Made by a program: the position numbers and the translations under genes. A stretch of DNA of 64,000 nucleotides, taken from positions 1 through 64,000 of the forward strand of contig UYFQ01000651.1 in assembly GCA_900617105.1 (NCBI GenBank), written 5' to 3'. This DNA comes from Hydrurus foetidus. Taxonomy: Eukaryota. The notes under the pieces were generated by a model. That model was given only the letters and a program-made list of their open reading frames with translations, did no database searches and was not told the DNA's origin. This document shows positions 1-25,799 of this stretch, one piece after another (the first letter of the stretch is position 1; each line of letters starts with the position of its first letter).

Positions 1-3000
1 TACCAACAAATTTTAAATCGGCATAGCCAAGGTAACATTTGGATGGTTTAAGGATCATTTTATGGAGACGAACGCGAGAAAAGAATTCTCGCAGTCGTGC
101 AACAAAGTTGTCAGGACTGTTTCCAAAAATGTTAACGTCATCGATATAAATTTCTAAAATTCTATAAAGTAACGTATTTAACACTTCAGTAGCAATCATC
201 TCTTGAAAATAAGAAGGTGCTTGCTTTAGACCAAAAGGTAGTCTAGTAAACTGATAGACACCACTATATAATATAAACGAAGTATATTTTTTAGTAGCGA
301 GTGTTAATGCGGCTTGATGGTATGCTTGAGCAAAATCCACCGTGCCAAAGATTGTCGGTTTCTGAGAACCGATTCTCTGTAACATTTCCGTTATGTTCGG
401 TACGGGCCAAGAGGCATGTTCCGTACATTCGTTCAAGTTACGGTAATCTATAACGAATCTTTTAGATCCGTCAGCCTTAGTTACTAAAAATCCTTGGCTA
501 TAATAAGCCGCAGTGGATTTCTCAATAATACCCTGCTCAATGAGGATATTTAATTGTCTAGTAATCTCCTTCTGATTGGCTGCTGATTGAGGTCTAGGTG
601 GTTGTCTATTTTTAGAGACACGCCACTTAGGGTCCTGAACAACCAGATCAAAAGGAGGAATAGAAGCAGGCTGAGATGAAAGTGTATTTGAAAAGATATC
701 TCTGTATTCAATACAGAGTAGTCTAATCAACTCCTGAAGTTCAGGAGTACCCGATATGTTAATCAGGGATACTGGGTCAACCGGTTCCGGATTGGTATCC
801 GGTAACCAAGGTGAAAAGGTACTAGCCTCATGTTCACCGATTTCATCATCATCTGGCATAGCCAGTTGAGATGTATTCTCGGATTGAATGACGAGAGAAG
901 CTAGTAGACCTGATACAATAACCCTTTGGGGTGTTACTGAGGTCGCTGCCCTGTGCACTATATTAGTCGATGCTAATTGACTAGGCAACTCGAGGAATAT
1001 TTGTGATTCCCGAATTGTCACTCGTCCGATCACAACATCGACTGAAGACTTGTTTAAAATAATTGCTTTGAAATTTAAAAAAGTATTTTTATTTAAACGT
1101 TCAGAAAAGTAAGTCATTTTCAAATTTATAGACTTAGAAATGTTATAACATTTTCCATCTAAGGCTGAACAAACAGTCAGTGTCTTGTCGAAAATAATAA
1201 ATTCTTCTAAATGAAAATTCTTAATTACACGCATGGCAACAAAATTGCCGGCGAGCGATCCCGTATCGATCAGCACTTGGACTTCATTTCTTGGCTGGCT
1301 GGGCTGTGACACATAGGTGACAGTAGCAGTTAGAAAGTCGGCTGACGAAAGGTTCGTAAGAGCTCCCAATATGGAAGAAGGAATAACAACATCAGTGAAA
1401 CTAATAGTTGATGATAACTTACTTGTCTTCTTTAAGCTCTTTTGCTTAGTGACCGGCTTAGACGGACCCTCCGGTACAGCCGAGGCTGACGCGGTAGCAG
1501 TAGAAGAAGAGAAGAAGAGGAGGTGGTAGGCACGTACGCTCCTCTTGCAACCAATGCATCAGGGTAATCCTTTTTCAGTTTCTTAAATGCATTGCTATCA
1601 GCATATGCACTGTCAGAAGAATTGAAGTAGGGTGATGCAGTAAATCTACACACAGAGATAGTGTGATTAGATCTTCCACAACCAACACAGACCTGTAAGG
1701 TGCGAGTGGTTGAGGGATTCGAAGACTTTGCAGTCTTCGCGGACTTAGCACGTGGTTTGATGGTGTCCTCATCAGGCTCAGCAGCGCGTTTGGAGATAGG
1801 CTTATCTTTAGAACGCGTAGCTGGGCCTGGAGTAACCTCATAACCAGCAGCCCGAAGCTCGTTAGCTGAGTTTCTGAGAGTAGTCAGTTGCGTCCACCAA
1901 ACGAATCGAAAATCTTTCAAATCGTTGATTGGAACAGTCTCACCGTTCACCTTGCGGCGTAAGATGAGCTGCCAATTGACGGGGTGGGTAGGCAACTGAC
2001 GCTCTAGAATCTTAACAGCCTTAAGCTGTTCCTCAGCAGTAGTGCTGGGAAATTTGCTACCAATGCACCAAGGGCAGTATCGTTACAGGAGTCAGTCTCA
2101 ATATTGTTCAAATCAAATCTGAAATTGAACGATGAGACTTGCTCGAGGAACGATGCCTGACCCAAAGGTGTATCGATGGACTCATCAGGTACTGCCTTGA
2201 GGAGTTCTTTGCAGAATCTCTCGGTAGTCCATGACTTCCACTCTTCGCACTCGTCGCGAATTGCTCTCTCAGTGCAATACTGCCTTTGCAGGAGTGTTAC
2301 AAGAGATTGCTCGACGTCTAATGGTACCACGTCAAGAAACGTATAGGGGCAACCATTCTTGCGAAGGTCATTGGTGATGCTTAAAACTTCCAGATGAGTT
2401 GGAACCTTGCTGAGCTTTCTAACCTTTTCATGAGGTAATAGATAGCGAGCAGCAAGGTTTGAAACAACAACATCGTCAGTAACACCACCAACGGTAGCAA
2501 AAGTTGCAACACTCTGAACATTTCTGTTCATGGCATTGCTGTCTGAAGTGAGCAACAGGGAATCGGTTTGCACCGGGTTTGCAGGCAAAACTGCGGCAGA
2601 TAACACAGACAGCACAGGCAAAGCAGGCAAAACATCACGCACAATGACAGGTGTCGGCGTGATGTCGGTGGCGGCGATGGCGGTGATGGCGGTGGTGTCG
2701 GCGGTGGCGGATGTCCTCGTAGATGATGGTGATGATGGCGCTGGTGGCGAAAGCACCGGCTCCAAAGATACTCCATCCACTCGCTGGGGAAGTTGTTGAT
2801 GTTCAACAGAGACTTCTCCCGCTTGGGATATCGCTAGATCCGCTGGCAGAGCTCCAGATGGGGCGGAAGATGGCTGCAAAAAATTTTGCAAGGGGTTTCC
2901 CCCTCCCACGCCGGGGGCCAAATTCGAAGAGGGGTTAGAGGCGACAGATAGGTTAGCTGCGACGTCAGTCGCAGCAAAAGATGGATCTGGAAGCGAGGGA

Positions 3001-3158
3001 GGATTCGCCGAGTCGGAATCTCCCGTTGTGCTAGCGTCCGGAATGATGGCGACGTTTTCGACGGTGACGTCGATTGATGGCGCTTCCTGAGAAATCGACA
3101 GGGGAGCCGTCGAAACGGCCGATACCCTGGAAAGTCTTCGTCGGTTGCTGGAAACCAT
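1..3158 (-). CDS. gag-pol polyprotein (gag, zinc knuckle, aspartic protease, RT), split by two -1 frameshifts near 2050 and 1510
   Basis: ORFs 2004-3158 and 1432-1995 (CVGCGRSNHTISVC) plus a third frame from ~1515 to base 1 in which DTGS (D codon 1267-1265) and YIDD are in the same frame. Confidence 0.88.
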
Positions 3159-3259
3159 ACTGGTGATCAGTGCCAGATGGTCGTCGGATGTCGGCGGTTG
3201 AAAAATCTATCTATCTCTCCAGTAACGAGAGTTCGTCTAACAACTCTCAATATTAATAT

Positions 3260-3634
3260 TGTAGTCGCGGCCGGATTCGAGTACGAAGAATCCGGGTAAA
3301 GACGGTATGCTGGAGTAAACTGTTAGGTTAGTTACAGTTTGTGAAAGAAGCGAGCAAGCAGCTAACAACAGACACAAACGATAGGCTACAAGGGTGCTGA
3401 TGCTGATGAGCGTCCGTTACCGGTGGACAGTTGATGTGGATGAAAATAGACTATGGGTGCGTGAATTATATACATACGTGAATATATACAAACGTGTGAA
3501 TATACATACGTGAATATATACAAACGTGTATAAAGTGTACGGTGAACGTACGTGCTAGGCTACACTACCATACATCTACAAGCACGTATGTACCGTCAGA
3601 GGGTCCGGGGTCCGGAGACCCCGGAACCACTACA
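3260..3634 (-). repeat. Putative 5' LTR of the gypsy element (375 bp)
   Basis: Inverted termini TGTAGT...ACTACA; sits just upstream of gag; its outer end truncates the neighbouring RT ORF. Partner LTR is outside the window. Confidence 0.8.
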
Positions 3635-4835
3635 CCGTCTTGTCGTCAGCTACTGCTGTTGACCCGAGTAAGGAGATGCAGACTTCTCTCGCAACTGCGA
3701 GGTCCTGCACTAGGTCGTCTTCAAAGCAGACACCTATGATGTCGTCGACATACATCTCTACCGCACTCTTAAGGGTGTGGGACAGCTCCCACTTAATGGC
3801 ACGTGTCACCGTCTGAAAAGCGGCTGGAGTGCACGCCCACCCGAAGATACCAGCAATCTGTAGGTACACAAGGTCACCAGTTAATTCCATTCCAAATAAT
3901 CCCGTATCCTCCGGGCGGAATGATAATAGGGTGTATGCACCCTTAAGGTCCATTTTCCACAGGCGAAGTTTGCTCCACTGAACGGTTGAATCCGCTTCTA
4001 CGGCCTTCTCCCAGAAGGAGATCATCATACAGACTATCCCCGCGATGGTTGGATGTCTGATGGCACCATATAGCTCCGCTGCTGCCGCTGTCGTTTCCTC
4101 ACTGTTCAAGGGGGTGCCCGTCACGTACGTAAGGTCCCCTATCGGCCGTCCACTTGGTTTTCCCTTCTTTGGTGCCCAGTGTGCGGCGCCCAAGTGCAGG
4201 TTTGGAATGTAGCGCAATGCCATCGCTTTTGGTAGCAAGAAGGCCAGCTTCTGTTCCACTATCCCGCCCAGCATCTTATTCACCGCTGAACTCACTTTGA
4301 GGTAGGTGCTTCTCAATGCTGCAATTGGTAAAGTGCCGTTCGGCTTAAAATCGGCCGGGAGAGGTACACGCATCCCGATTGCAAGATCCAACAACAGCTC
4401 TCTCTCGGGGTTGTCTGCGCGTAGGCGCTCAACCCTTGCTCGACTGAGTCTATCGCTCGACAGCAGCTTCAGTCTTCGCGAAACCATCGCGACGAAGTCA
4501 AGCTGAGCAGCTTGGAAACACCGCACGTCACTCTCGATCATTTCGCGTGGGAACGTGTACTTTTCAGCCCAAGCCACTGCAGCATCCACACCGTACTGGT
4601 CATCGGATGCTATCACCGCCTCTGTCATCAAAGCCTCAAGGAACGCATTAGGGAGACGATCCCCCTGGGGAAAATATGAATTCGCCATTTTGATCATCTC
4701 CTTCACCAGTGCTCGCGGAAAGCAGGGGTCGAGTGCGGTACTGACTATATCAACCTCCTCGACTAGTCCCCCGCTCTTCACTGGGGCATCAGTCTTACTG
4801 ACCTCTGTGTCGGACCTCCGACTCCCCTCAGGCAG
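3635..4835 (-). CDS. Reverse transcriptase of DIRS/Ngaro type, truncated at C-terminus
   Basis: PKKGKPSGRPIGDL, LWKMDLKGAYTLL, GIFGWACTPAAF, MYVDDIIG; ends at ...ADDKTV at the gypsy LTR junction. Confidence 0.88.
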
Positions 4836-6571
4836 TCATACATGGGTCTTGCCGTTTCTGATTTTACCGAGAGCCTCTATGCAGTGCTGGCGGAACCGCA
4901 GCGCTAGGGTAGCCGCCGTTGACGCTTTCTTCGCCTGCGTCCAGGTAGTGATGTCTTCGTGACGATACCTGCATGCTTCTCCAAATGCGCACGCGAACGT
5001 ATGGTTCGTCTTTGGGTTCACTACCCTGAGCTGTCCTGCGAAATGTTCACCACACACCATATCGGGATTACTGCCTGGAGAGCCTGATGCTAGCCCCGCT
5101 GGCCTCCCCTTCATCTCTGCCTTTGCCTTTGCCTTTGCCTTTGCCTTTGGCGCTACCACTTTGGCTGCATTGCTCACCTTGGTCCTGTTCTCTCGTAGCT
5201 GATACCAAGCCATGGCTTCGCTCAGCTTCTCCTGAGTGTCAATCGTGCTGGAGAACTCCTGGAGTACCGCACTCAGCCGAGCTGCACAGTTAATTGGTGT
5301 ACTGATGTCCCTTAGACCCGCATTTGCTACCGTGGTTGCCATTCGTAATGCTCTGAAGTATTTTGACAAGACTATGTCCACGGAGTGCAGGAGGAACCCT
5401 GAGGGTGCAACTCCATAGGCCGTTGGAGACCTTCCAGCTGATCTATGAATGCGGTGGTAGTGCCTCTAAAGGCCGCACCGTAAAACACGGAGAGACTTAG
5501 ATCCATGTTTCTGAAAGCGGTGACAAGCGCCATGTTTTGATTCGGACACGGCGTTACCTCCACGGGGATCTTAATTGACCTTCCTGCGAACTTCTGCAGA
5601 TTCAGTGCATCGGCCGTGGACCCTCCGAAGTCTCCCGTTAATAGCTTTTTCAAGAGAGGCATATCGGAGGAGAAGCCCAGATTCCAGATTCGGTCCAGTA
5701 GACTGCAGCACTCGAAACCGACGTCCCTCTCGCTCGCTCGAGAGATGGACTGCTCACTGATGACCCTTGCATACTCCTCAACCTGGAGTATGCACTCCGT
5801 ACCCATGATGTATGGCCATCTCTCCCTTTCGCACACTCTAAATACTACCCCTAACTCCTTCTCCCTCTCAGCCATATCTTTCTTCACCCGCGTAGGGTTT
5901 ACTCCCCCCTCTAGGTCGATCAGCATTAGCTTGCTGCTCTGCTTCTCACCTTGGTTCTGCACTCCCACTCCATCCTGCAGGCCACCACGCATCCTCTTGT
6001 CCAGATGATCCTCATCGGTATCTGCCACTGAAGTCTCCATCTCGTGGGCCCTCTTCAACTTCGCACTCAACCCTTCGGCGTGCCTCATGGCCACCTCCTC
6101 AAGCTCTTCTACAACAGCAAGGAAACTCGATGGAGTTGCTACGTTGACTCGGGCTCCGACCAGCGACACATCGGCCGGCGGCTCTCCGCTACCAGCTGTC
6201 CCAACGAGCATTGCGTACGTCTTTGTACTAGTCGGCTTTCCTCTCAGTTGCCAAAGTTGGACTAGCGAGCTGTCTAGGAATGCCATGGTCAACATCTGCC
6301 CTTCTGGTGGCATAAGTGCCGGGAGAATGAAGAAGGACTTAGTTGCCATGTCTTGCCACGGCTGCATCCGAGCGTTGAAGCTCAGACGCAGGAATCCTTC
6401 ACCATCGTACCCATCACGTTTGAACAGTGCAAGAGCATTCAGCGACTCTACTGCCGCATTTGGTAGGGTGCCGTACTCCGGAAGGGACAGCGCCTTCGAC
6501 ATCGCGACGAGCGCTGCTGCAGCCTTTGCTGATCTGCTACTTTCAGTTTCAATATCAAAAACTTCTGTCAT
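4836..6571 (-). CDS. gag-like protein with C-terminal CCCH zinc finger (one -1 frameshift near 5408)
   Basis: ORFs 5372-6571 and 4836-5381 join if one G is restored (TTG GCA CCC TCA = LAPSGFLLHSVDIVL); motif CGEHF...CAFGEACRYRH. Confidence 0.7.
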
Positions 6572-6591
6572 TTGAAAAAGACTTTTTAGCT

Positions 6592-7278
6592 TTAAATTTC
6601 GTCACCCGAATCTTCCCGTCCATCTACTTGCGATGCCTTATAATCACTGACCTTCTTACGTATCGCCAACCATTTAGATTGATATGGTGAATTTGCTAGA
6701 GTGTTATTTGGCGTTGCACGTACTCGACCAAAATTCTTCCCCATCAGAGAAGGTATATGAACCAACCACAATTTGCTGATGGGTATTAACTTTTTGTTCT
6801 GTGACTTCTTTGAGTCAGTTTCCCAAGACTTATACGACTTGATCAAATCAATCTGCTCTGCAGTTGACCACACTGACCGGGCAGTCTGGAGCGGGAAAGT
6901 CTTATCGCCAATTACAATAATTGACTCTGTTGTCGATGTGATTACTGGAGCAGATTTCGACTTCATGGATTTGCTTTTAGAGGTGACGTTCGACTGTGTT
7001 ACCGTCGTGTTACATCGAATCATCTTTTCTGCTGTCTCTGCCGCCGTATCAGCTTGAATTTGAGCATTTGTTCTCCGGATTTTCTTCTTCTTGACAACAG
7101 GAGTGAAGAATGATGCCTCATCTGATGGAGCAGTAGATGATGCGCTGGCGATCGTCACGGTGCTCTCGAGAACATCGATATGAGGCATCGACATGGATTT
7201 TTCGCTGCCACCGGATTCAGATCCAAAGCACGTTGAAATGCCGTCAGAACTGTCGTCCGACAGAAAATTGACTGACAT
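6592..7278 (-). CDS. Myb/SANT(trihelix)-like DNA-binding protein, possibly transposon-derived and truncated
   Basis: S/T-rich N-terminus, KKKKIRR basic stretch, then WSTAEQIDLI...LW...YQSKWLAIRKK with the spaced Trp pattern of Myb/SANT-like domains (as in PIF/Harbinger accessory ORFs). Confidence 0.5.
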   Translation of the reverse strand: MSVNFLSDDSSDGISTCFGSESGGSEKSMSMPHIDVLESTVTIASASSTAPSDEASFFTPVVKKKKIRRTNAQIQADTAAETAEKMIRCNTTVTQSNVTSKSKSMKSKSAPVITSTTESIIVIGDKTFPLQTARSVWSTAEQIDLIKSYKSWETDSKKSQNKKLIPISKLWLVHIPSLMGKNFGRVRATPNNTLANSPYQSKWLAIRKKVSDYKASQVDGREDSGDEI

Positions 7279-7557
7279 CTCGGAGCGTCAGTATGGGCTT
7301 CAAGAATTGACTGTTCTGGTTAGTGTGCTGCCCAATGCAACGAAGATCAGATTTATCTGTCAAACTCCATCAACTCTTGATTTTTACCCTCAGCTCAACC
7401 TTTTAACTTTTAGAAACAAGAGTTGGGAAAAGAGTTTGCGAAATCAACGTAAAATCTGAGATTGAGTTTTTTAACCACATTTTTAGCCTGCGTTTCTTGT
7501 TTCTTGCGAGTTGGAATCAGGCCAAATGTCGGATGTCGGAGAAAGTCGGAGAAAGTG

Positions 7558-7836
7558 TGTTGGAAATCTGGGCGATTTACACGGAATTTCTTCCGAGTTC
7601 CCAAACGATCCCTGCACTTCCGACTGCTAGCAACGCTTGCTCAAAAGAGAAAAAGACGTTCTATTCGGTAAGTTGGATTAAACGACAGTGACATGCTGTC
7701 GATTACATCTAGGTAGCATAACATGAGTGCGAGGGTTGCGGTCAATGCTATCGCTGAATGTACGTACACCCGTGCATGAAAACAATCATACATCACACAG
7801 GGTACAAGATCCTAGTCTAATCCGGATATCACAACA
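7558..7836 (-). repeat. 3' LTR of copia element
   Basis: Direct repeat of 13312-13590. Confidence 0.98.
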
Positions 7837-7843
7837 CACCCCC
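7837..7843 (-). promoter_or_regulatory. Polypurine tract
   Basis: GGGGGTG on the minus strand immediately before the 3' LTR. Confidence 0.8.
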
Positions 7844-8347
7844 ATGATGGTTATTGTTTGAATAAGTGAATATGTTAATTAGCATATGCTTATATAGTAT
7901 ACTTATTGGTTATTGTTCATAATGTTTCACACAACACTCAGATAGGGAACTTAGTGTTAGGGTATGGTAAACAGTAAATTTTCTTAAAAATATTTTTCAC
8001 GGAATTTTTTAATATTGACAAGTTGCGTCGTGATATGGTGTAAAATAAAACATGGGTGGTTGGATTAGCGGGTAAGTATTACTCGAGAAAAACTATTTCT
8101 AAACCGTCAAAAAAGCCTCAGCTGGTGACCGGTCTCGAGTTCGATCCAACCGATGTTGGTGCCCTTAAATCCGCTAAAACGTCGACATTCGATGTCGCAA
8201 AAGCGGTGCATCGATGTCCCTCGCGGTCCTATCAAACAAATGTTGATTTAAAGCGAAATCAGATTTTTATTTTTATTTTGTAATTTATCTGGAAAAAGCG
8301 CTATAAGTGGGTAAGTCAAAATCAATAAATAACTCCCCTGAATTTCT

Positions 8348-11300
8348 TTATACATTGAGCACTTGGTCGCGTAGCTCTTGGAATAGCTTCCCCTGCAGTG
8401 GCTTGGTCAGCAAATCTGCAATCATTTCTTTAGTACTCTTGTAGGTTACAATAATATGGTCTGATTTAATTCGGTCATGCAGGAAGAAAAACTTGATGTC
8501 TATGTGTCTAGTTCTTTCACTGTTGGACCTACCGTTCTTAACTAACTGAATTGTGGATAGGTTATCTTGGTAGATTAAAGCTGGACCTACCTCATACTCT
8601 TGATGGATAAGGAAATTCCTAGTCCATAAAACCTGATTACCTGCTTCAGTCATAGCTACTAGTTCTGCCTCTGTGCTAGACGTAGTATTTAATTTCTGAG
8701 TGGAACTCTTACCATATATTGCTCCCTTACCTAGTGTTATAATACAGCCAGTGTGACTCTTCTTATCTGCATGTACAGCGTATGATGCATCTATATAGGC
8801 TATAACCTTAACCGGAGTATCTACCTCTAGGGTCAGCGGCGTAGCTCTAGTCTCTCTGATATACCGTATAGTATGCGCTAACTTATTCCAGTCGTCGGTT
8901 CTAGGTTCTAAGACTCTTTTAGTTAGATATGCTATACATGTCAGTATGTCTGGTCTGGTTCTCTTACTTAAATATAACAACTTAGCTGTTAGTGAGTGGA
9001 ATCTCTCACGTTCTTTATCTTTCAATAAAGGACTGTTAAGATCGATCTTGAATAGATTATCGTCGGCAGGTGTTCTAGACACCCCCACAATCTCTATGCA
9101 ATCGTCTAACAAGTCTTTTATGAAACCTTCCATGGATATGACAACTCTGCCTAACTGCTCAAAGTTAAAAGTCATACCTATATAATTCAACACTCTACCT
9201 CTACTCTTAGTCAAGCCTGGGTATAGTTTTCTATCTCTGAAATTATACTATCTATACGCTTCTCATCCCTACTGCTGATCATCATATCATCAACATGGAT
9301 AACTAAAGTAGTCTGAGTGGAATCTAGCTCAGTCCTATTGAATACACATATGTCTGATGGATTTACCTTATAGCCTAACTGTGTTAAGTCTGATGATATT
9401 TTATCGTACCATAACTTAGCTGACTCTACACATCCATATAATGCTTTCTTAAGCTTAACTACTACTGTTCCTTTCTCATTTACATACTTCTGATAGGACT
9501 TGTCAATGCTAACTAATATGTTAGTCAAATATTTATTCAGTCTCATCAGCACTGCATGGTCACCGTCTAGTGGCATATCACTGTTGAGGAATGCACCAGG
9601 AAAATCGATCGTAGCGACCGCTCGATTTTCACTAGCAGCAATTGCAGCAACAATAAATACGCTAGTGGTGCTAACAGTTGGTGATGAACCGTTATCATAT
9701 ATATTTCTATCTTGTAAATGACCTCCTGCTACAAGTCTAGATTTTAGCTTATCAAATTTACCATCTGCTGTATACTTATCTTTTAAAAACATACTGCTGG
9801 TTATGATACTTTTCCTCTGATTGTAACTAAGACTGTTGAGGTGAACTGCCTCCCACACATTCTTATCACACATCTGTTGTAACTCTTTTTAATGGAATCT
9901 ACGGCTATCTCGCCTAATTTCTGTACTCCTTCTGTTACGGTCATGTTCATCATGTACTTACACATAACTGAATCTTTGTAGCTAGGTATACTTAAACCTA
10001 CTAATCTCTTGTTCCATCTACCTGGCTGATGGTTTCTAGCACTACGTCTGGGTTGTTTATCTAGAATTTCCTCTGACTTGCTATTTTCTGTGGTGGGGGT
10101 ATCTACCTCATCATCACTGTCTACACCAAATATATCATTCATTAATGCATCGGGGTCAGTTGGTGTATCGTCATACACTACATCCTCTCCTTCATTAACG
10201 TATATATCATTTGGTATGTATTCTGTTAATTGTTCGAACTCTGATTCGTAAGCTACATCAGAATTGCCATCGTATGAGTCAAAATTATTTGCTATCTCAT
10301 GATGCACAAATTCGTCTTCTGTGGGATAACTATACGGTGTTATCATGTCAGGTGTCTGCAACTCAAATTCATCGTTGGAGTAATCATTTCCATCGTCTTC
10401 GAGGATTTGATTACTCTGTTCGAAAATAGGTTGCTTGACATTCACTGACATATTTAATTTCCTCTCAGATGCTAACTTATCGAGGTAACTGATCACATCA
10501 TCTGTCATGGGTAGGCTAGTAGCCTTTGTCCTCTTCACTACTTTTAAGTTAGCTAACAGCAGATAATACCATGAACCTTCTAGGTTGCCTGCACTAACTA
10601 ATGCTATTGCTGCCTGTGATCTGGGTTTAGTCGAGTTGTCCACGGAGTCGGTATGTACTTGTACGTAATCACCGAAACCGTGTTTCAACTCCTTATCTAC
10701 GTTAATCTTTCTACCGTATAATTTCTCTCTGGGGCTGACGTAAGCTACACTGTTTCTAGTTGGTACTAAATTTAATCTGTTCACAACATATCTAAGTAAC
10801 CAACTTTCTAGTAGCTCACTCAGTGAAAAAGGTACCGTGTTGATGATGGCACGAACACGTTCCTTGATCACTCTGATCTTCCTCTCAACTACAGCTACTG
10901 CTTCTCCTGCTCCAGTACTGTCTAATATAATACCTAGTGCGGCTAGCTTACTCTCAAAACTTATAGTGTTAACTGCCGACTCTCCGTCTATTCTTATCAT
11001 AGTTATCTTAAATCCATACTTAGTAATGTGATGTATGTTGCTCTCTAAGTTCATCCATAAGGAAGACTTATTTTTACGTGAGAGTTTACATATCATCACA
11101 TATTCTAAGGGATTTGTAACTGTGACTAGATAGGGTATCGAGTTCACAAACATCAAATCTATGTACATAACCTGGTTCAGGAACTGCCTATCTACAACTG
11201 GCATCTCTTCCTCTAACTCAGTTTTGTGACTAGTTGTTTTCCCCTTAAGGGAACCCAAATCTGGTCCAAAAATATCTAATGCTCTAACTACATCTTGCGC

Positions 11301-12074
11301 TGTTATGTCACTCTTATCTAATTTCCCCTGACCTATTAATTTAATTAACTGTCCTGGGCTGGCGTAACCTAACTTTCTCTGATACTCTCTAGCTAACTCT
11401 GCTGACTTAACTTGTCTAGCTGTATACAGTTTCTTCTTATCCTTAACTGTCATGACCATGATCGATTTATCGAACGATACATTCTTGTAACTGACATTTC
11501 TGTCTAAGTCGCATAGATATATGTTCGTAGACTGATCATGGACAAATCTATATACAGGTCCTAACTTAATCATCCTAACTTTGTAACAATCCTGGTCACT
11601 GTCATAGCTAACTGACTCGCTCGAGCTGACTATGTTACCGAAGGATAATATATTTGCTATACAATTGCTATCGTAGTAAACTGTTCCGAAGTCCGTCTCG
11701 CCACACTCCGTGATTATCAAGGGTTCCCCTGAGGGTTCACTCCATTAATAATCATCGGGGTAGCGGACGGCATAATACTATAAAATAAATCTCCACTACA
11801 AAATACTGACTCTGCTGCACATGTATCTAACAACACTTGTCTCTCTGTAAATGTGGAACTGTGTGTATATACATTCGCACTAAAAATCACAGGGTCACCC
11901 CCACAATTTTTACTGTTCAGTGGACAAAAATTCTCCAGGCTGCATGCTTTATCTAACAATGGCACAAGCGCAGGGTAACCGGTCGACGTTGCAAATACGT
12001 CATGCAGTCCGGTTTCCCCACACGGAACATTTACATCCCTAGCTAGTGAATCAGGTAAAAAACATATAAGGGAC
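8348..12074 (-). CDS. copia pol (protease, integrase, RT, RNase H), split by three -1 frameshifts (~11727, ~9888, ~9228)
   Basis: PR LLDTCAAES; IN YIDLMF / RIDGE / VVERKIR; RT KSRLVAGG, IDFPGAFLN, LKKALYG, HVDD; RH YIDASY, SSTEAEL, YQDN, ADLLTKPL. Confidence 0.95.
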
Positions 12075-13256
12075 TTACTTTTCCGAGGAAGTGTGACGCG
12101 CAGGTGCGTTCTTCCTCGCGGGCTTCTTACACTCGTACGCATAATGCCCCTCCTCCCCGCAGTTGTTGCAAGATCCGAAACGGGTACCGTACTCCTGTAC
12201 GGCACCACCTCTCTCTCTCTGCGGGGTGGCCTCCCTATCCCTATAGGGAGTGCCTGCCCTCGCTGTACTCTCGCTGCCGGGGGTATCGTACCCTCCCTTC
12301 TCAGCTCCCTGACTGCCTCCGCGGCCTCTGCCGCCTCTCCCACCGGAACCCGCTCTCCCACCCCGACTGGCCGCGAAAACGTTTCGCTTCTCCGAGTTCG
12401 GGGGAGCTCCTCCGTGGACGGGCCTTCCCATAAGGAAGTTGGCCGCGTCCTGGTTGGCATCAGCCATGGTCTGCGGCCATGGCCGAACCTTATTTTTAAA
12501 CGTATTAATATATTCTGAATAGTTTGAATTCAGTGCAGTTATAAATAAGACAGCATGGAACTCATCTGTGTGTTCTGGTGCGTCTTCGTCTGCCAACCTG
12601 TAGGCTTCGCTCTTGACGAATAGCAGAGTCCTGCACCTACTATAGTAAGCTGCTAGATCTTCGTGTTGAGTCATTTTGTTATTATAAAAGTTTCTAACTG
12701 CTGTAATAATGTTATAAGTTTCTCCATACCTTTTGTTGCTCATGTGTGTTGCAACCACACATGTCAACAGACCTAGAGGATCGCATTCCTCCATAGCTCT
12801 CTTTCCCGCGGGCATCTCGTTCACCCTCGTCTGCGAGGCCTCTGACATTTGACCTAATAATACACCATACAATTTTGCGCAGTCTTTTATAAGTAATTCA
12901 GATGCAGCTTCATATTTCTTACGTGCAGTTTTCCATCTCTCTATGGCGACCAGTCCTGCTCCTTCAGGCGGGTCCGCAGGTTCTACCTGCTCCACGTAGT
13001 CGTAGAGGATCCCGTCTATACCTATTATTTCTTTAACAGTAGATTCATAAGTACTGTGCATATATACTCGAAAACATTCGAGCCATTTCAACACAGATTC
13101 TGGATCTGCCGCTTGTCCTCGCGGCAAATCCAGGTAAGCACCTACCTCGGGCTTCCTACCTTTAGATATGGGTTTATGAGGCTCTCCTTGCCCTCTACCA
13201 TATCGACCCCTGCCCCCGCCACGGGACTGGAATCTTCCATCGCCTCGTCCTCTCAT
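12075..13256 (-). CDS. copia gag with RGG boxes and CCHC zinc knuckle
   Basis: First ATG at 13256; CNNCGEEGHYAYEC; TAA at 12077-12075. Confidence 0.92.
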   Translation of the reverse strand: MRGRGDGRFQSRGGGRGRYGRGQGEPHKPISKGRKPEVGAYLDLPRGQAADPESVLKWLECFRVYMHSTYESTVKEIIGIDGILYDYVEQVEPADPPEGAGLVAIERWKTARKKYEAASELLIKDCAKLYGVLLGQMSEASQTRVNEMPAGKRAMEECDPLGLLTCVVATHMSNKRYGETYNIITAVRNFYNNKMTQHEDLAAYYSRCRTLLFVKSEAYRLADEDAPEHTDEFHAVLFITALNSNYSEYINTFKNKVRPWPQTMADANQDAANFLMGRPVHGGAPPNSEKRNVFAASRGGRAGSGGRGGRGRGGSQGAEKGGYDTPGSESTARAGTPYRDREATPQRERGGAVQEYGTRFGSCNNCGEEGHYAYECKKPARKNAPARHTSSEK

Positions 13257-13300: not shown

Positions 13301-13311
13301 ACTGTCGTTTA
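13301..13311 (-). promoter_or_regulatory. Non-tRNA primer-binding site TAAACGACAGT, complementary to LTR positions 13443-13433
   Basis: Abuts the 5' LTR CA end, lacks TGG, and is an exact 11-nt reverse complement of ACTGTCGTTTA in the LTR. Confidence 0.8.
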
Positions 13312-13590
13312 TGTTGGAAATCTGGGCGATTTACACGGAATTTCTTCCGAGTTCCCAAACGATCCCTGCACTTCCGACTGCTAGCAACGCTTGCTCAAAA
13401 GAGAAGAAGACGTTCTATTCGGTAAGTTGGATTAAACGACAGTGACATGCTGTCGATTACATCTAGGTAGCATAACATGAGTGCGAGGGTTGCGGTCAAT
13501 GCTATCGCTGAATGTACGTACACCCGTGCATGAAAACAATCATACATCACACAGGGTACAAGATCCTAGTCTAATCCGGATATCACAACA
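13312..13590 (-). repeat. 5' LTR of copia element
   Basis: Direct repeat of 7558-7836, upstream of gag. Confidence 0.98.
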
Positions 13591-13594
13591 AAGT

Positions 13595-13790
13595 GGGTGA
13601 CCTCGTAAATTCAAAAAATTTATGTAACCCAGATTTGAGTGACCCAGAAAAAAAAATATGCGATTCCCCCCCCCCCCTGTCTAGATTCTCCTCGAATCCT
13701 AGATTTGGGTGACATAAACTTTTTGGAAAGTCAAAATTTATGTCACCCAAATCTGGGTTCTGGGGGAGTTTTGAATTTACGAGGTCACCC
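13595..13790. mobile_element. MITE, 196 bp, PIF/Harbinger-like
   Basis: 22-bp TIR GGGTGACCTCGTAAATTCAAAA; AGT on both flanks (3-bp TSD); internal GGGTGACATAAA / TTTATGTCACCC sub-repeats. Confidence 0.85.
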
Positions 13791-13972
13791 AGTGATCCTG
13801 GATCAAGATCATATCATCAACTTCATGATATTATCTATAATCGTAGGTATCATCATTAAAACATCTGCTGGAAGTTGAAGACCCTTCCTCTCGAACCAGA
13901 CCGCAGGAAACTGCTACTTGTAATACTTCTTTTTCTTCCACCTTCAGCAAAGGTTGTTATCTGAGTGTGATC

Positions 13973-14728
13973 ATGGCTTCCAATTCCGAGTTTCAACTTG
14001 AGACCGATATTCAATTTCGGGATGTTGACTACGACAAAGATATTGAAAAGTTGCTCCCAATATATATTAATGCTTTCGAAGATCAAAGGCAATACATTAA
14101 TGTATCATTGGCCACAGGAGAGGCCCACAGGGCAGCTTTGGAATTCATCTTTTCAGTCCGGCTATTTCTACTTGCGAGACTCCGCGACCAGCAGACGATA
14201 TTTCTTGTCGCCACGCAGGATGAAGCAGTGATTGGTGCAGGTGCCATTGCACCAAATTCATCATCGAACACATTTTGGGACACTGTTAGCTCGGGGATGT
14301 ACTTATTGCCATTTAAGTTTGGTTATGGTCCCTTTATGCGCGCGATGAAATTAGGAGGATCAACAAGTGGTGTAGAAGTTGATCCTCTCGGTGGAAAGGT
14401 GGTCATGATGGCCGTTGACCCAAAGCTTCACGGAAGAGGTGTTGGCAGTGGCCTGCTCAAACGTTTACTCTCTCGATGGGATGCGGACAAGACTCATGGA
14501 GACCTCCTTCTATTAACGCAACTCGAGAGCAGCGTCAAATTTTATCGGGGTTATGGGTTTGAATTGACAGCCAAAGTAGACAAGGAGGGATATTCTAACT
14601 GGTCTATGCACAGACCTCAGCCAGTGACTCCTGAAGATGTCGCTGTTGTCACTCCAACCGGTGAAGTAGATGCAGCACAAGATAAAGCAGATGACGGAGC
14701 AGAAGACCACGTGCAATTGAAACCGTAA
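13973..14728 (+). CDS. GNAT-family N-acetyltransferase
   Basis: Acetyl-CoA motif MAVDPKLHGRGVGSGLL and C-terminal VKFYRGYGFE; single exon; first ATG 13973. Confidence 0.92.
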   Translation: MASNSEFQLETDIQFRDVDYDKDIEKLLPIYINAFEDQRQYINVSLATGEAHRAALEFIFSVRLFLLARLRDQQTIFLVATQDEAVIGAGAIAPNSSSNTFWDTVSSGMYLLPFKFGYGPFMRAMKLGGSTSGVEVDPLGGKVVMMAVDPKLHGRGVGSGLLKRLLSRWDADKTHGDLLLLTQLESSVKFYRGYGFELTAKVDKEGYSNWSMHRPQPVTPEDVAVVTPTGEVDAAQDKADDGAEDHVQLKP

Positions 14729-16734: not shown

Positions 16735-18945
16735 TCATCTTTCTGGAAATATGTCGTATTCTCCTTGATCGCTCGGTGCTCTTTTTCTTCTCGATTCGGA
16801 GGAATGTCTCTGAGATTGTAGCAAATTCTCACGGTTCGCTTGTTGACTCACCTCGCAATCTGATGACTTTTCCCTCAGAGAACTTTTAGTAGTTGTAGTA
16901 GAGGTACTTCCCATGGTGGTTGAATTGCTCGTTTGAGGTTGAGTGGGAGGGATTCCATTCCTCAAATGTGGGATAGGATGGGAGATTGGAGTTCGATCTG
17001 TACCGTTTGATAAATAGGAGTAGGAATAATTAAACATGGAGGGGGAGGGGGAAGGGGAGAGAAAATAGCCGTCATTATTTCCGTTACTGCCCCGACTACT
17101 GCCAAAAATATTTGTTTCTACGTATCTTTCGTGTTCACTAGCGCCATTATCAGAGCCTAAACCTGTAAATGCACCTACACTGCCACTCGCAATATCGCCA
17201 GTGTTAGAGTGAATATTGTCGCTACTATAATGCAGATGCGTGTTGAATGAGGGGAGTTGGAGGGCATGATTAGCTGCTACTTCAGCGAGTAAGTACGTAT
17301 GGCTTGTGGAGCAGTTTGAGCCACTGGGTTGATTTAGAAAATTATGAAATGTCGCCATACCACTTGCTCGACTATTGTGCTCTGCTTTAGGCATTGCTGT
17401 CTCCATTGCCTTCATTAGCGGATACATAGAAGGAACTCTTGTATTCTTTTTCGCAGTTGACCATTCCTTAACTAATTGTTCTGCTGCAACTCTTGGGTCC
17501 CAAGCTACACCCATTTTCAAGAAACTATTAATATTGACATTTGCTGCACTTTCTGACGTGTCACTGTTGCTGCTATTCATGCCACTGGATTTTGAAAGTA
17601 AATCCGTCTTTCTGGTTGCTGCGTGATTGCTCTGAATTCCACAGTTTTGGTTTTGAGTCCAAAGATTTGAGTTTTCTGCGTTAATTTGATTTTCTACAAT
17701 ATCTGAGCTGTTTTTAGTGATACTGCAAATATCTTCTTTCGATAGTGATCTTCTTGTGTTTGTTGTAAAAGTGTGTACTGCATTATCTGCTTCGGATAGT
17801 TGTGTGTGATTTTTGACACCGTAGTGTTGCGTCATTTCAATCGCACTGTGTCGACTGTCAGCGGAAAATACTTGTCCGTGAGTAGGTCCTCTATATGCAC
17901 GCATATGTCCAACATTACTCTGCATTTGATTTTGACTTTGAACTTGATTTTGAGAATACACATCTGCAGCACTTTTGGAATAAGAAGAAGATGTTCTCAT
18001 GGTGTCCAATTGCAGCAATTCATCATCCAGACAGCTGAACTCGTTTACTGACATAGGGCTACTGATACGTGGCCGATTAACCGGAAATAGACTGGAACTG
18101 CTGGAGCTCGAGCTTGTGGTAGACGTAGTGCTGCCCAATGCAGCGAATGTAGGATAGCTTCGCGGACCTTCCGCGTGAGATGCAGTAGCTGTTTTGAGTC
18201 GATCCGTACACGGGATAGCCTCACTGTTCTCATTATTTGTCCCACCAGAATAATCTACACCGACATGCTTAATGTTATTAGCAGCACTCTTTCTCTGAGT
18301 GTTACCTCGACTTTTCTCAGAAGTTTTATTCTTTTCTTTTGAACCTTTCAGATTTCTTGTGGAGCTTGAAGTCTTCTCATGAGAATCAGAATGCGGTGAT
18401 GCTGGTTTAGTACTGACTGCTGTTGCCGCTGCTGAATGACAGTGATAATTGTGAGAGCTGGACGAATCTGGTGCGTTTGTAACCGAAGACGATGGAATGG
18501 AATTAGCTGGCGCGTGTCTGTTCATAACTGCTTCGATCAAGTTGCACAGAACTCTCGTGGATAGGGGTTTCCTGAGGACAGAAAAGAAGCCCAAGGAATG
18601 GGCATCGTAATCATTGGTATTGTCCAATTCGTCAAGCAGCAAGACAACTGGAGTCGGTGATCCTACAGCATGCAGCACGCCAAGCATATTCGTCGCACCC
18701 AAATGCTGCATGTCTTTTTTGGCGATGATGAGGTCGTAGCATGTGTGCTCAGAGCACTCTAGGCCGATAAAAGCATTTGGTACCACCGTGAAAATGCAGC
18801 AGTAATTCGTATCTTCCGTTGACTGTTCTAACATTCTGGCTCCACCTTTTTCGTCAACACCCGGTTCAACATCTGATGGCGAGTGGAAACAGTCGTCAGA
18901 AACATAGAGAATAACCTCGTGCTTGTTATGCTGAGTTTCTGACAT
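16735..18945 (-). CDS. Protein with N-terminal pseudo-receiver (CheY-like) domain and long disordered tail
   Basis: ILYVSDD...YDLIIAKKDM...TPVVLLL...GFFSVLRKPLS follows the receiver pattern; 736-aa uninterrupted ORF. Confidence 0.8.
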   Translation of the reverse strand: MSETQHNKHEVILYVSDDCFHSPSDVEPGVDEKGGARMLEQSTEDTNYCCIFTVVPNAFIGLECSEHTCYDLIIAKKDMQHLGATNMLGVLHAVGSPTPVVLLLDELDNTNDYDAHSLGFFSVLRKPLSTRVLCNLIEAVMNRHAPANSIPSSSVTNAPDSSSSHNYHCHSAAATAVSTKPASPHSDSHEKTSSSTRNLKGSKEKNKTSEKSRGNTQRKSAANNIKHVGVDYSGGTNNENSEAIPCTDRLKTATASHAEGPRSYPTFAALGSTTSTTSSSSSSSSLFPVNRPRISSPMSVNEFSCLDDELLQLDTMRTSSSYSKSAADVYSQNQVQSQNQMQSNVGHMRAYRGPTHGQVFSADSRHSAIEMTQHYGVKNHTQLSEADNAVHTFTTNTRRSLSKEDICSITKNSSDIVENQINAENSNLWTQNQNCGIQSNHAATRKTDLLSKSSGMNSSNSDTSESAANVNINSFLKMGVAWDPRVAAEQLVKEWSTAKKNTRVPSMYPLMKAMETAMPKAEHNSRASGMATFHNFLNQPSGSNCSTSHTYLLAEVAANHALQLPSFNTHLHYSSDNIHSNTGDIASGSVGAFTGLGSDNGASEHERYVETNIFGSSRGSNGNNDGYFLSPSPSPSMFNYSYSYLSNGTDRTPISHPIPHLRNGIPPTQPQTSNSTTMGSTSTTTTKSSLREKSSDCEVSQQANRENLLQSQRHSSESRRKRAPSDQGEYDIFPER

Positions 18946-19377
18946 ACTTACATAATACTTTCATAATCTTTGGCTTCATGACTGCCACTCTAAACGACAA
19001 AAATGCCTTCTCGGCTAGACATAGAAGTGAATCTTCGCCTCAGTCCTGTGTACGTCGATAACAGATACTGCCGATGTTTCCGTCGCAGTGATGAAGATAA
19101 GTCCATTATTTTTCGGAAAACTGGTGCACTCCGCTGAATGCTCTGCTGCCATCATGTCACATCATCATGCCGCACGAAGGGTTGCAAAGGTGCAGAGGTT
19201 GTTGTTAATGAGTCCGTCCTGAGTGCGAGGAGAGCCAGAGGAGCAGAGAGCAGAGGAACATCTGAATTCAGGATGGGACGGGAATGGACAATACCGTACT
19301 TTGGGATGTTCCCAGCAAACGGGAATATCCCCGCAACCGTAGAAGATTTTGTTTTCTAGATTTTTCGTAGATTTTTT

Positions 19378-21051: not shown

Positions 21052-24000
21052 CTAGGAACTCTCGGATTCCAGAATTCTTGCAACTCTAGCAGCTTGAAAA
21101 CTCGCCAATTCCCACTGATATTTCCACATGGCTATCTCGCATCGAATACTCAGTCGATAAGCGGCCTCCTCTTCAGCGTCTTCAGCTGTCTCAATTTCAA
21201 CAGAATGTTCTGGAGTACGTACTTTGCGATTAATGCGTACATGTATGTTCGTGTTTGTTCTGTTTAGTTCTAGGGAATTAATGTCATGAGTCTCGTACCA
21301 AATTTTGCGCGTTTTAGATGTTCTCTTGTTGACATTATTATTTGGTACGGATGTAGAGATTGTAGTGTTTCCGTGGAGATGCATGCTGCGTGATGAAGGC
21401 ATAGGCATAGGTGCAGGTGCAGGGGAGGTGGAGATGGGTGAGGGAGAGTCACGAATTAAGGCGTCATTATTGTTCCGACAATCATTCTTACATATGATTT
21501 TCATCGACATTGTTTTATCTATCGTTTCCTCTTCCACTTCTACTTCCTTTTCCTCTTCCTTTTTTTCTTCTTTAATCACCACAGAGTCAATCATAGCGTT
21601 AGTACGCGAAGAAGATACTTGTACGTTACACTGTTTTTCAAGTACAACCCCTTGTGACATTTCCTCCTCCATGATCGCTTCTCTCCTCACTGCACTCTCA
21701 TCACAAACATCACCACTCTCTCTGTTTTTTTCTGCTATTCCTCGTGTGTCCAACATTCCCTTAGGACCAGAATTGCTGCAGAACATTCCGCGTAAACTGC
21801 TAACGTCACTCCGCAAATCGCACATTCTTTTGGGGGATGTAATACAGGTGGAACTTGGACTTCGAATTCCAGAATTTTCGATAAAGTGCGACTGTTGATA
21901 TTGGATGTTAGGAACTGTGTGAGTAGAGAGTATTGATTTCAGAGGTGATGGAGATGCAGATGGGGATGGTTTGGATGGAGTAGAAGTGGGAGAAGGAGTA
22001 GTGAGAGGGTGGGAGGAGAGAGGAGAAGAGGAGGAAGAAAGAGAAATGGTCGATACTACTGATTCTGATTCTGTTCCGCATTCTGATTCGCATTCTGACT
22101 CATTTTCATTTTCAAATTCTGCTTCTGCTTTATCAATACTGACGTCATTCGTATTCCGATCCACTTTGCTAGGAATGTTCGGAAGCGATGAAGAACATTC
22201 TTCAACAGTGTTGTAGGAAGAACGTTCTGAATTTGCCTCAAGCAATATTTCAGTAGAATTTTCCTTGCCAAGTCGATCAGAAGAATGTTCTTCGCTTGGA
22301 CCTCTTGATGGGGAATGTTCCTCACGCAATTTGGAAGTTTGTCGTTCATAATAAGTGTGCGTCAGTAATTTAATTTGTGTTGGTATTAAAGAGATGTTCT
22401 CACAGAACGGCTCAGCTGTCTGCATTGCCCTCTCAGGTGCTCTCTCCTGACAGACAGCATCCCTGCCCTGCTTCTCACGTACTGGTAAACATACGCACTT
22501 ATCATCTATTGGAGGCATATTGACATTCGAATAGTCAGTGGAAACCTCTACTACATCCGACTGTGGGAATGTCGTACTAATAACTGGACTTTCATGAGCA
22601 ATTGAGGAATTAAATGAGATATTATTTGGTCTTGCTCTTTTAGGTGTAGCAGTATATTGACTTAAATCACTATCAGAATCAGAATAGGACCCATTACTCT
22701 CACATTCCAGAGTTAGAGGAGTGATTTTACTTTTCAGTTGTGTTGCGCCTGTAGTTTTATCGTCATATTTGTCATATTTGTCATATTTGTCAACAGCTAT
22801 TTCGAGCGTATTTTGTACGGTACATGGAGGAATGTAAGGTACTATTGATTCACTTAGTATCTCATTTTCATTCTCAAACTCAATCTTCACCTCTACCTTG
22901 TTCTCTAATTCGTTCTCTACCTCGTTCTCTTCCTCTTGTGATGTGTCATCCGTCTGTGACTGAAACAACATTTTCAAAATTGAAACTTTCTCGGATACTG
23001 CTGTGCAACTTTTGTATGGAGAATCATCCTTCTCATCAACACACTCTTTTTTCTTATTATCTACTTCGTTAATATTGTTTTTCTCACTTACACTCTTCTC
23101 CTCTTTTTCTGTTTCATTCAAATTCGGAATAATTTCATTTTCACTTATTGCCTTGAATATATTTCTTTCCCGTACAAATCGCATGCTTGGCAGACCAGTG
23201 ATAACGTCTGGTGTTGTATCGCATCTGTCATTCTCGATTTCATCTTGACACTCATTTTTATCTTCGATGCTATTTTTTTCATCCACATGACCATATTTTT
23301 CTATTTCTTCTTTGATTCCGTTTGTTCCTATTTTGCTCTCACTATTTTTTTTCATCATACATTTTGCATTTTGATCGCAGTAACTGGTCAAATTATCATC
23401 ACTACCATTTCTGACATTTCTCTCACTTCTCTCACTACCCATGTAGCTCATATCAGCATTTGGCGTCATTAGTTCTCTTTTCTTATCATATCCACTTGAT
23501 TTCAATTCACATTTTCTATTTGTTACTGATGGCATACATGAGGTAGTGTTTGAGGTAGTGTTGGAGGCAGAGTTAGAGGTAGTGTTTGAGGTAGTGTCAT
23601 CTGCCATTGATGATAGAAGAGCTCTAAATGGAGCGGAAGGTGTTGAGTTGCATCGTATCATGCCTCTGCCAAATGGATTGCAGGCAGAGAAAACGGGCAC
23701 TTTTGATAGAGAAGAAGATGAAGAAGAGGAGGAAGAGGAGGCTGGAAAAGAAGATATAGTAGCTCTTCTATTCATAACGACCTCCCCATTACTTCCGCTT
23801 GATGCACCAGCAGCATTACTTTTACTACTATTTAAATCATTTGCAGCAAATATCTCTTCAGCCATAACTTCCATTATGGTCAGCCGAGCTGTCGTAGGAG
23901 ACAAAGTGGACCTTCGGGGACTGGATTTAGGGACCTTTTCAGGGGTCCCCAAAATGGGTGTGGAATGTGTGTTGGACGGGTCTAGGTTCTCTTGAATAAG

Positions 24001-25799
24001 CAGGGTTGAGGGTTTTTTCTTGAGTCTTGATGCGGGAGATAAAGTGTGAATGGAAGTGGAATTTGTCGGACATAAGTAGGAGGTTGGACTGAAGGATGTA
24101 ATCGTTGCTGTGGTGGATATGGAGGGAGATGAAGATGAATTACCTAGAGAAGAAGATAAAGACGAGGAAGAAGAGGCGGAGGAAGTAGAGGAGGGTGAGG
24201 AGTTTGGAGAGAGTGATTGACATCCTTTCGAAACATAAGGCCCGTGATTTTCTTTGTTTATTCCTTTGATAAATCCAGAAGATAAATCATCTTGAGGAAT
24301 CTTCTTCGTCTCATCAAGTGGTGAGGAGGATATTTTCATGTTTTTGAAAGAATTATGTCTACTGAATATTGTTGGTGATGCAGAGAGACGAGATCGAAGT
24401 TTCCTAGCGGCTTTTAAGGTGTCCAAGTGCGTCAAATATCTATCCAAAAATAAATCAAAAAGTAAAATTAATTTCAAAAATGTAAAACCAGAAATAGTGT
24501 GTAATCTATAATTTCATAACCATAATTTGTAATCACTGTCTCAGAGAACTTCGACACTTGTAAACAAAAGGATGTCATCGACATAGGCGGATTGTGTCGC
24601 ATTTGTAAACATTTGGAAGATAAATTAATGGAATATTGGGTGGGGTAGAAAAGAACATTCCTACGATGGTAAACAAAATAGCACATTAGGAACATTGAAA
24701 CTCGTATCGAACACTTGTTGTTCTCAAAATACAGAATTCATTCACGACAGAATTATACAGAAATAGAACATAATTGCATATAGCATGCGTAATTCAAATT
24801 GATTTCACAGAACAAATTTCTAGCTCAAAAGAAAAGGTAGTGTAGCAAAAAGCACGCAACAGTTTGAACTCTGGACTTGTCCTTTACCTCTTCTCATATT
24901 CCCCGGAATCGACAGCATAGCCGGTCTCCATATCGACATAAACATAGGCAGTACATTTACTGCGAGATTTCTCCACTTTGCATTTTGTGTATTCCTCGCA
25001 TGCCTTCGAGTCTAGCAGACGTTGCTTCTCAGCGTCTGCCACCATAGGAGTCATTCCTAACAGAAGAGTCTTCTTCGCATCTAAAGAATCGGAAGGGGTT
25101 CAGCGATGAGAGATGAATTAGAGAATATTGCTGTATCGCAATAACATCTAATCGGAAAGAGGCTGAGTTGCGCTAGTTATTGCTGCTATTTGCTCGAGAA
25201 CTGTGGGACGCATCGAGAATGGATGAAAAACAGGTGTGGAGAAAATAATTCTTAGAGAGTCAGTAGAAAGAGAAAATTTCCTCATCAGGCCGTAGCAGGT
25301 CTTGCGATGCTAACATCTTCTCAACGATACAACAACTTGCTTACCTAAGGATTCAGGGTGATTTGTATACTTCTCTGGATACATGCTTCTTTGTGGTAGA
25401 ATACCATACCCTGTTTTTTCCATAAGAAGTCTCGCTAAAGTGCATGCCTTTTTTGCCGGAATCCTTCCTATACTGTTCGCCATCAACTGCAACAGCGTCA
25501 AAGATAATCGTGGAAGATAAGAAAACCCACTAGATGATCTATAAGATATCGATTGCAACACATCGATCTGCCTCATGTTTTACCCTGCAAAATTCCCTGA
25601 CGCGCTCCTCATCACTTCTTGCTGAGAAGAAAGTCGATTCATCTTTGGCTTCTTTCCTCGGTAAGATGACATTATCGCATTCGGTGATATCAACTTCTCG
25701 ATATCCTCGCGGATTGACCTCCATACTTTGACGAATATCGCTTAGGAATACCTCAAGCTCTGCATTACTCACTGTTCTTGTTAAACTGCTGTTCGTCAT
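21052..25799 (-). CDS. Large protein of unknown function, 4 exons (25799-25584, 25486-25345, 25080-24888, 24439-21052)
   Basis: GT-AG introns join in frame; ordered N-terminus ending YVYVDMETGYAVDSGEYEKRY, ~1100 aa S/E-rich low complexity, short helical C-terminus. Confidence 0.8.

Follow-up and report, generated by a model that had tools for sequence, protein, structure and literature searches.

[quoted passage not shown] The initial annotation had put forward such Tf1-like self-priming, with a transcription start at 13443. [quoted passage not shown]

Structure of the element

The element is 6.0 kb long (6033 bp) and occupies 13590-7558 of the minus strand, on which all of the following features are read. 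The 5′ LTR (13312..13590, 279 nt, TGTTG...CAACA) and the 3′ LTR (7558..7836, 279 nt) both begin with TG and end with CA, and they are identical at 278 of 279 positions, with a single difference between them. U3 of the 5′ LTR would run from 13590 to 13444, and R-U5 from 13443 to 13312. The element is flanked by a 5-bp target-site duplication, CACTT (13591..13595, partner 7557-7553), and a polypurine tract, ATCATGGGGGTG (7837..7848), lies immediately before the 3′ LTR. The paired TG..CA LTRs, target-site duplication and polypurine tract are those of a Ty1/copia LTR retrotransposon, as are the domain order gag-PR-INT-RT-RH and the copia-type reverse transcriptase. The sequence at 13590-7558 is a recently inserted member of this group.

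The gag ORF (12075..13256, 393 aa) contains a CCHC zinc knuckle and opens with the earliest ATG downstream of the predicted +1. It is followed by a protease region in a different frame (11717..12074, LLDTCA at 11833-11816) and by an integrase ORF piece (9801..11744), which has no Pfam match and was assigned through its homologues and its D-D-E-type motifs at 11165, 10991 and 10889. A reverse transcriptase piece (9211..9888, HVDD at 9297) was recognized by motif and by Pfam, and a further piece (8348..9247) holds the RT C-terminus and RNase H, with the acidic motifs of the latter present (YIDASY, TEAELV, YQDN, IADLLTK). The Pfam matches of the element's ORFs were RVT_2 (E 1e-21) and zf-CCHC, and Rfam gave no match within the element at E 0.1. 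Frameshifts break up pol in this copy, leaving it in pieces that lie in several frames. Contigs from other runs carry one additional base at these breaks, and a 99% identical protein runs across the RT-RH break; the breaks therefore belong to this copy or to its assembly. Depth over the element, summed over contigs in runs X8 and X9, is far above that of the flanks, and although this is not a copy number it suggests that the element is present in many copies. Among the metagenome sources examined, the glacier samples X1 and X2 were the best for this element.

In the window element and its relatives L001 and L014 gag and pol are separate ORFs, unlike the single gag-pol ORF of many more distant relatives, and Pol may be expressed by frameshifting or by splicing. 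The end of gag (12083-12070) reads AAG-TAA-GT, in which a splice-donor-like GTAAGT overlaps the stop codon; many close gag homologues terminate in SSEK or GKGK. Upstream of its ATG the gag frame stays free of stops across the PBS and as far as U5 (13394-13256), in a leader lacking ATG, and the same is seen in the homologues P0122, P0124, P0127, P0128 and P0138.

Other features were recorded around the element. A GNAT acetyltransferase ORF (13847-14728, plus strand) adjoins the 5′ LTR; its nearest Atlas clusters are bacterial, which does not establish a transfer. A 54-nt dispersed repeat is present in five diverged copies (35263-35316, 40929, 49932, 56823 and 59782), possibly the ends of a small non-autonomous transposon, and a 98-nt tandem repeat forms an array at 30098-30891 with a core 98-99% identical. 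Long ORFs of 200-1153 aa at 1432-7287, 16735-18960 and 21052-24513 (minus strand) have no Pfam match, the block at 2-6 kb is GC-richer than its surroundings, and among 110 short ORFs compared with Pfam a single match was obtained, to FKBP.

A primer-binding site complementary to the LTR

The PBS is 11 nt long, lacks TGG and directly adjoins the 5′ LTR, at an offset of 0 from its end (13301..13311), the minus-strand junction reading ...CCAACA-TAAACGACAGT-CATCC. Its exact complement lies within the LTR at 13433..13443 (LTR nt 148-158), with a second copy in the 3′ LTR at 7689-7679, and perfect pairing ends at 11 bp. A match of this length in a 279-nt LTR has a chance expectation of about 1e-4. 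The lack of TGG, the exact complement in the 5′ LTR and the end of pairing at 11 bp had been noted in the initial annotation and are confirmed. The LTR segment is the predicted self-primer, and would form nucleotides 1-11 of the RNA. The annotation had also described its start as initiator-like, TC-A-CT, which holds: GTCACT at 13441..13446, with a predicted +1 at 13443, fits BBCA+1BW, as do two other sites in this LTR. The base immediately after the PBS (13300) is a C, a putative footprint left when reverse transcriptase copied the self-primer's m7G cap.

When RNA starting at 13443 was folded in silico, the PBS helix closed the leader (z -3.4, none of 200 shuffles being as stable), and the mean pair probability of this leader-closing helix was 0.89-0.95. 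A U3 arm at 13450..13458 is partly complementary to the primer and is predicted to form a hairpin with the primer copy at the RNA 3′ end (13458-13433 in one LTR, 7704-7679 in the other), with a pair probability of 0.97 for five pairs. On this model the hairpin could stop the 3′ copy of the primer from competing for the PBS. It is not lineage-wide, the corresponding complementarity in relatives being 3-8 bp and mostly 3-5 bp.

The 11 sequencing runs identified all consist of contigs. The LTR-PBS junction is spanned by contigs of independent runs, which show no variants at a level of at least 3% in either arm; with about 10 variant sites in 390 nt, this invariance is not significant. Contig depth across the LTR has no step at 13443, depth of this kind being unable to map a start.

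PBS and LTR change together in related elements

Relatives were collected with an RNase H profile search, which gave 101 loci, 78 on metagenome contigs and 23 on MAG contigs. The metagenome loci were drawn from the best 80 of 558 confirmed, in 11 of the 64 parts of the collection. Four of the 101 loci lacked an RNase H end and 56 had a long ORF after the RNase H stop; 28 of these 56 were read across the terminal overlap of the contig, most relatives being collapsed metagenome contigs. A check on gag that is independent of pairing was passed by 47 loci, 45 by BLAST and two through a gag-pol ORF of their own. Nine were dropped at this point; eight of these have matches of 5-8 bp, and L037 has one of 16 bp.

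Among the loci fetched, a perfect match of 10-19 bp between the PBS and the element's own LTR was found at 41 of the 47 testable LTR-gag junctions. The match is at least 12 bp long in 35 of the 41, and in 37 it exceeds all of 60 shuffles. In each case the bases pairing with the LTR arm come right after a CA, and the arm lies 70-221 nt upstream of them. Six junctions gave less than 10 bp, but on inspection four of these (L010, L047, L061 and L076) have 9-11 bp, two of them with an LTR end read as CAATA. L030 and L048 have no convincing match to their own LTR, nor has L036, which had been dropped for want of a gag match. A palindrome spans the LTR-PBS junction of L030 (L030:5343-5800). In the RNase H tree L030 and L036 stand as sisters, and they may represent a sub-lineage with another mode of priming. 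Where linear contigs include sequence upstream, L003, L004, L024 and L096 match over 14-15 bp and L067 over 9 bp, and L005 and L068 have no match of at least 9 bp.

Removal of three loci that share their first 10 PBS bases with others left 38, which with the window element make 39 families. When the PBS of one family was compared with the LTR of another, matches of at least 10 bp occurred in only 2 of 1482 pairs. The PBS is preceded by CAACA in 30 of the 39, although the search had demanded only CA, and a polypurine tract with a matching inverted LTR start was present at 23 of the 38 loci, compared with 9% in shuffles. Both results indicate that the LTR ends are the true ones. TGG was found at the PBS start in none of the 39 families, the window element included, which is not the pattern of a PBS for a tRNA 3′ end.

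In a quick RNase H tree, built without named references, the window element groups with L001, L014 and L079 (SH-aLRT 99). L001 is the nearest testable relative among the loci fetched: 3 of its 11 pairs differ from those of the window element, and each is altered on both sides. The covariation that the initial annotation had proposed to look for in related copia families is thus present, both in the 41 of 47 matches and in these double-sided changes. The primer length of 11 nt holds for the window element, where the helix ends at 11 bp, but not for the lineage, where it varies between 10 and 19 nt. Three gag homologues read HKRQA rather than HKRQS through the PBS, a protein comparison in which a change on the LTR side would not be visible.

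Between L017 and L024, and between L003 and L004, the reach of the helix towards the initiator A differs by one base; in both L017 and L024 a C follows the helix, as if the start site had moved by one. The loci L079-L096 are protist-type copia contigs in bacterial MAG assemblies, most likely through binning contamination. No relatives were found in three scans of viral contigs or in a gag-profile scan of metagenome contigs.

Signals at the predicted RNA 5′ end

Three signals that had not been used in finding the helices, namely the initiator, a step in ATG frequency and the C after the PBS, point to the LTR arm as the predicted 5′ end of the RNA. The primer arm begins at, or one nucleotide past, a CA in 31 of the 39 families, against a background of 11%, and the CA is absent in the other eight. 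The hexamer BBCABW is present at the start of the arm in 22 of 39, with a background of 2.1%. The human initiator consensus is BBCA+1BW (as given in PMC5287114); the oomycete initiator is described as YCAYTYY in PMC3599244. No TATA-like consensus was found upstream of the predicted +1 across families.

ATG occurs 88 times in the 3563 nt upstream of the predicted +1 and 12 times in the 5855 nt downstream of it, a 12-fold drop. It is the most depleted triplet downstream, and the step sits at the predicted +1. In the window element there are seven ATGs in U3, the last 5 nt before +1, and the next is that of gag.

Among the 18 families in which pairing extends to the initiator A at +1, the PBS is followed by C in 13 (expected frequency 0.22, p 6e-6), and the base after that is A in 10. 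C also follows the PBS at 7 of 11 loci outside this set. In contrast, where the helix ends a single base before the A, as it does in 13 families, A comes next in seven and C in only four. The test on C was conceived once the data had been inspected, and it draws on families that are related to one another. MMLV-type reverse transcriptase on capped templates is reported to add C, mostly as CAA, opposite the m7G cap (described in PMC6885630). A C after the PBS is what would be expected if reverse transcriptase copies the cap.

Proposed priming mechanism

On the reading that we favour, Pol II would start at the initiator A at 13443 and the RNA would be capped. Nucleotides 1-11 would pair back with the PBS so that the R-U5 leader is closed, and the element's RNase H would then cut near the junction of nucleotides 11 and 12, by analogy with Tf1, to leave a capped 11-mer that reverse transcriptase would extend over U5-R. 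During plus-strand synthesis the retained primer would itself be copied up to the cap, where a C would be added opposite the m7G, and the PBS would in this way be rewritten from the RNA 5′ end in each cycle. Copying of the primer to the cap would account for the wobble-free pairing, for its extent from the LTR end to +1, for the concerted changes among families and for the C that follows.

That the helix exists does not establish what it is for. Covariation and folding demonstrate the pairing and not a cleavage, and a structural role (in packaging, dimerisation or control of translation) might be envisaged, with priming by other means, for instance by a short capped RNA, or in trans by the second packaged RNA through its 5′ end, with no RNase H cleavage in cis. 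In favour of this, PMC5445492 describes for the fungal GalEa copia elements a conserved non-tRNA hairpin that occupies the place of the PBS and has no known role. However, one arm of the helix starts at the 3′ edge of the LTR, the site required for a primer 3′ end, and the predicted +1 is where the other arm ends; G-U pairs would lengthen the helix at the +1 end in only 1 of 39 families; and a C follows the PBS. Selection on structure alone accounts for these features less well than does the copying of a primer as template, and we consider a purely structural role improbable. Priming by a half-tRNA, tRNA-Asp (GUC) cut after its anticodon loop, with an incidental match to the LTR, appears more improbable still. 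Half-tRNA-primed copia elements of the Osser, Bryco and Bianca type have a PBS complementary to the 5′ half of a host tRNA. With a primer ending at tRNA nt 41, the PBS complement of the window element does read Y-U-GUC-R with a stem of 3 bp, anticodon-loop priming that includes tRNA-Asp is described for fungal Helenus elements in PMC10886601, and half-tRNA priming has been reported in several plant copia lineages according to the text of PMC6317226. Registers ending at nt 39, 40 and 41, however, fit 0, 2 and 3 of the 39 families respectively, and the nearest relatives L001 and L014 misfit and yet keep the match to their own LTR. A half-tRNA would also leave the LTR match (about 1e-4 by chance), the initiator and the ATG step unexplained. 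ARAGORN found no tRNAs in the 64-kb window.

A chance match or an assembly artefact was also considered, as 11 bp is short and the frameshifts may be assembly errors. This explanation is rejected as scarcely credible in view of the chance expectation, the independent-run contigs that cross the junction, the 41 of 47 relatives, in which dozens of unrelated contigs have the same geometry, and the cross-family control.

Comparison with known systems

The arrangement resembles that of Tf1 and Tf2 of Schizosaccharomyces pombe, of Tj1 and of the Tf1/sushi group, in which the PBS likewise adjoins the 5′ LTR and is complementary to the RNA 5′ end. Tf1 reportedly retains its primer and is said to require additional U5 stem-loop structure, both to judge from the titles of papers; leader hairpins are predicted in the window RNA from 13443. 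Pairing in Tf1 involves the first 11 bases, with an RNase H cut at the junction of bases 11 and 12, and self-priming, demonstrated for this element, is implied for Tj1 and the Tf1/sushi group (as described in PMC7175516 and PMC4600332). Priming by an 11-base primer is thus demonstrated in Tf1, whereas in the relatives of the window element it is predicted, with primers of 10-19 nt. Tf1/sushi elements are Ty3/gypsy with the order RT-RH-INT; the window element has INT before an RT of RVT_2 type, and we therefore rejected membership of that group. The likeness in mechanism would be either convergent or ancestral.

The initial annotation was aware of no demonstration of self-priming for copia. Its premise of novelty goes too far, since self-priming was already proposed for two plant copia families, Houba and Osr-1, and the TAR lineage to which they belong was predicted to self-prime in 89% of 203 elements (PMC6317226). 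As with the window element, these are copia elements for which self-priming is predicted from PBS-LTR complementarity, the TAR call being made from complementarity alone in the account given there. TAR is a plant lineage, whereas the nearest named relatives of the window element are diatom proteins: just one integrase homologue carries a taxon name, that of a diatom, Fragilaria crotonensis (36% identity), and the nearest Atlas clusters carrying any taxon are Bacillariophyta, with 1-2 members each. The host would accordingly be an aquatic protist, probably a stramenopile. An origin independent of TAR is presumed, the tree having been built without TAR references. The diatom relatives recall the CoDi elements (Copia of diatoms), which fall in copia Branch 1 according to PMC2774666; no named CoDi clade is included in our tree. 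GalEa elements, mentioned above, are likewise copia without a tRNA PBS, but their Conserved Hairpin Site is described in PMC5445492 as lying entirely downstream of the LTR, with no LTR complement, unlike the pairing reported here.

Self-priming by copia elements is thus not new as a prediction, but its occurrence in a diatom-type lineage appears, on a literature search, to be new in print. The main texts of PMC2806351 (the CoDi paper, supplements aside) and PMC2774666, in the portions available, contain no statement on a PBS or on priming, and the literature searched, which included these and the main text of PMC3601003, holds no statement on self-priming in diatom-type or other protist copia elements; CoDi supplements, Repbase and GyDB lay outside its scope. 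The search likewise listed no work in which a C that follows a PBS is traced to the cap.

Implications

The broader proposal, judged on the sequences compared, is that a large aquatic-protist copia lineage self-primes independently of Tf1/sushi and TAR and copies its capped primer through the m7G cap; we give this an even chance of being correct. The C after the PBS, if it is a real cap footprint, would be sequence evidence for a self-primer that is both retained and copied. The PBS and the following C would then be a genomic record of the capped 5′ end of each element's RNA, so that DNA alone would suffice to locate transcription starts, and synthesis templated by the cap would routinely form part of a natural retrotransposon's cycle. 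The proposal would also account for the failure of PBS finders to detect anything in these protist copia elements, and would supply a simple annotation rule. If it is true, this would be the third lineage, after Tf1/sushi and TAR, with LTR elements that do without a tRNA primer from the host, a point relevant to whether self-priming is ancestral or has been invented repeatedly.
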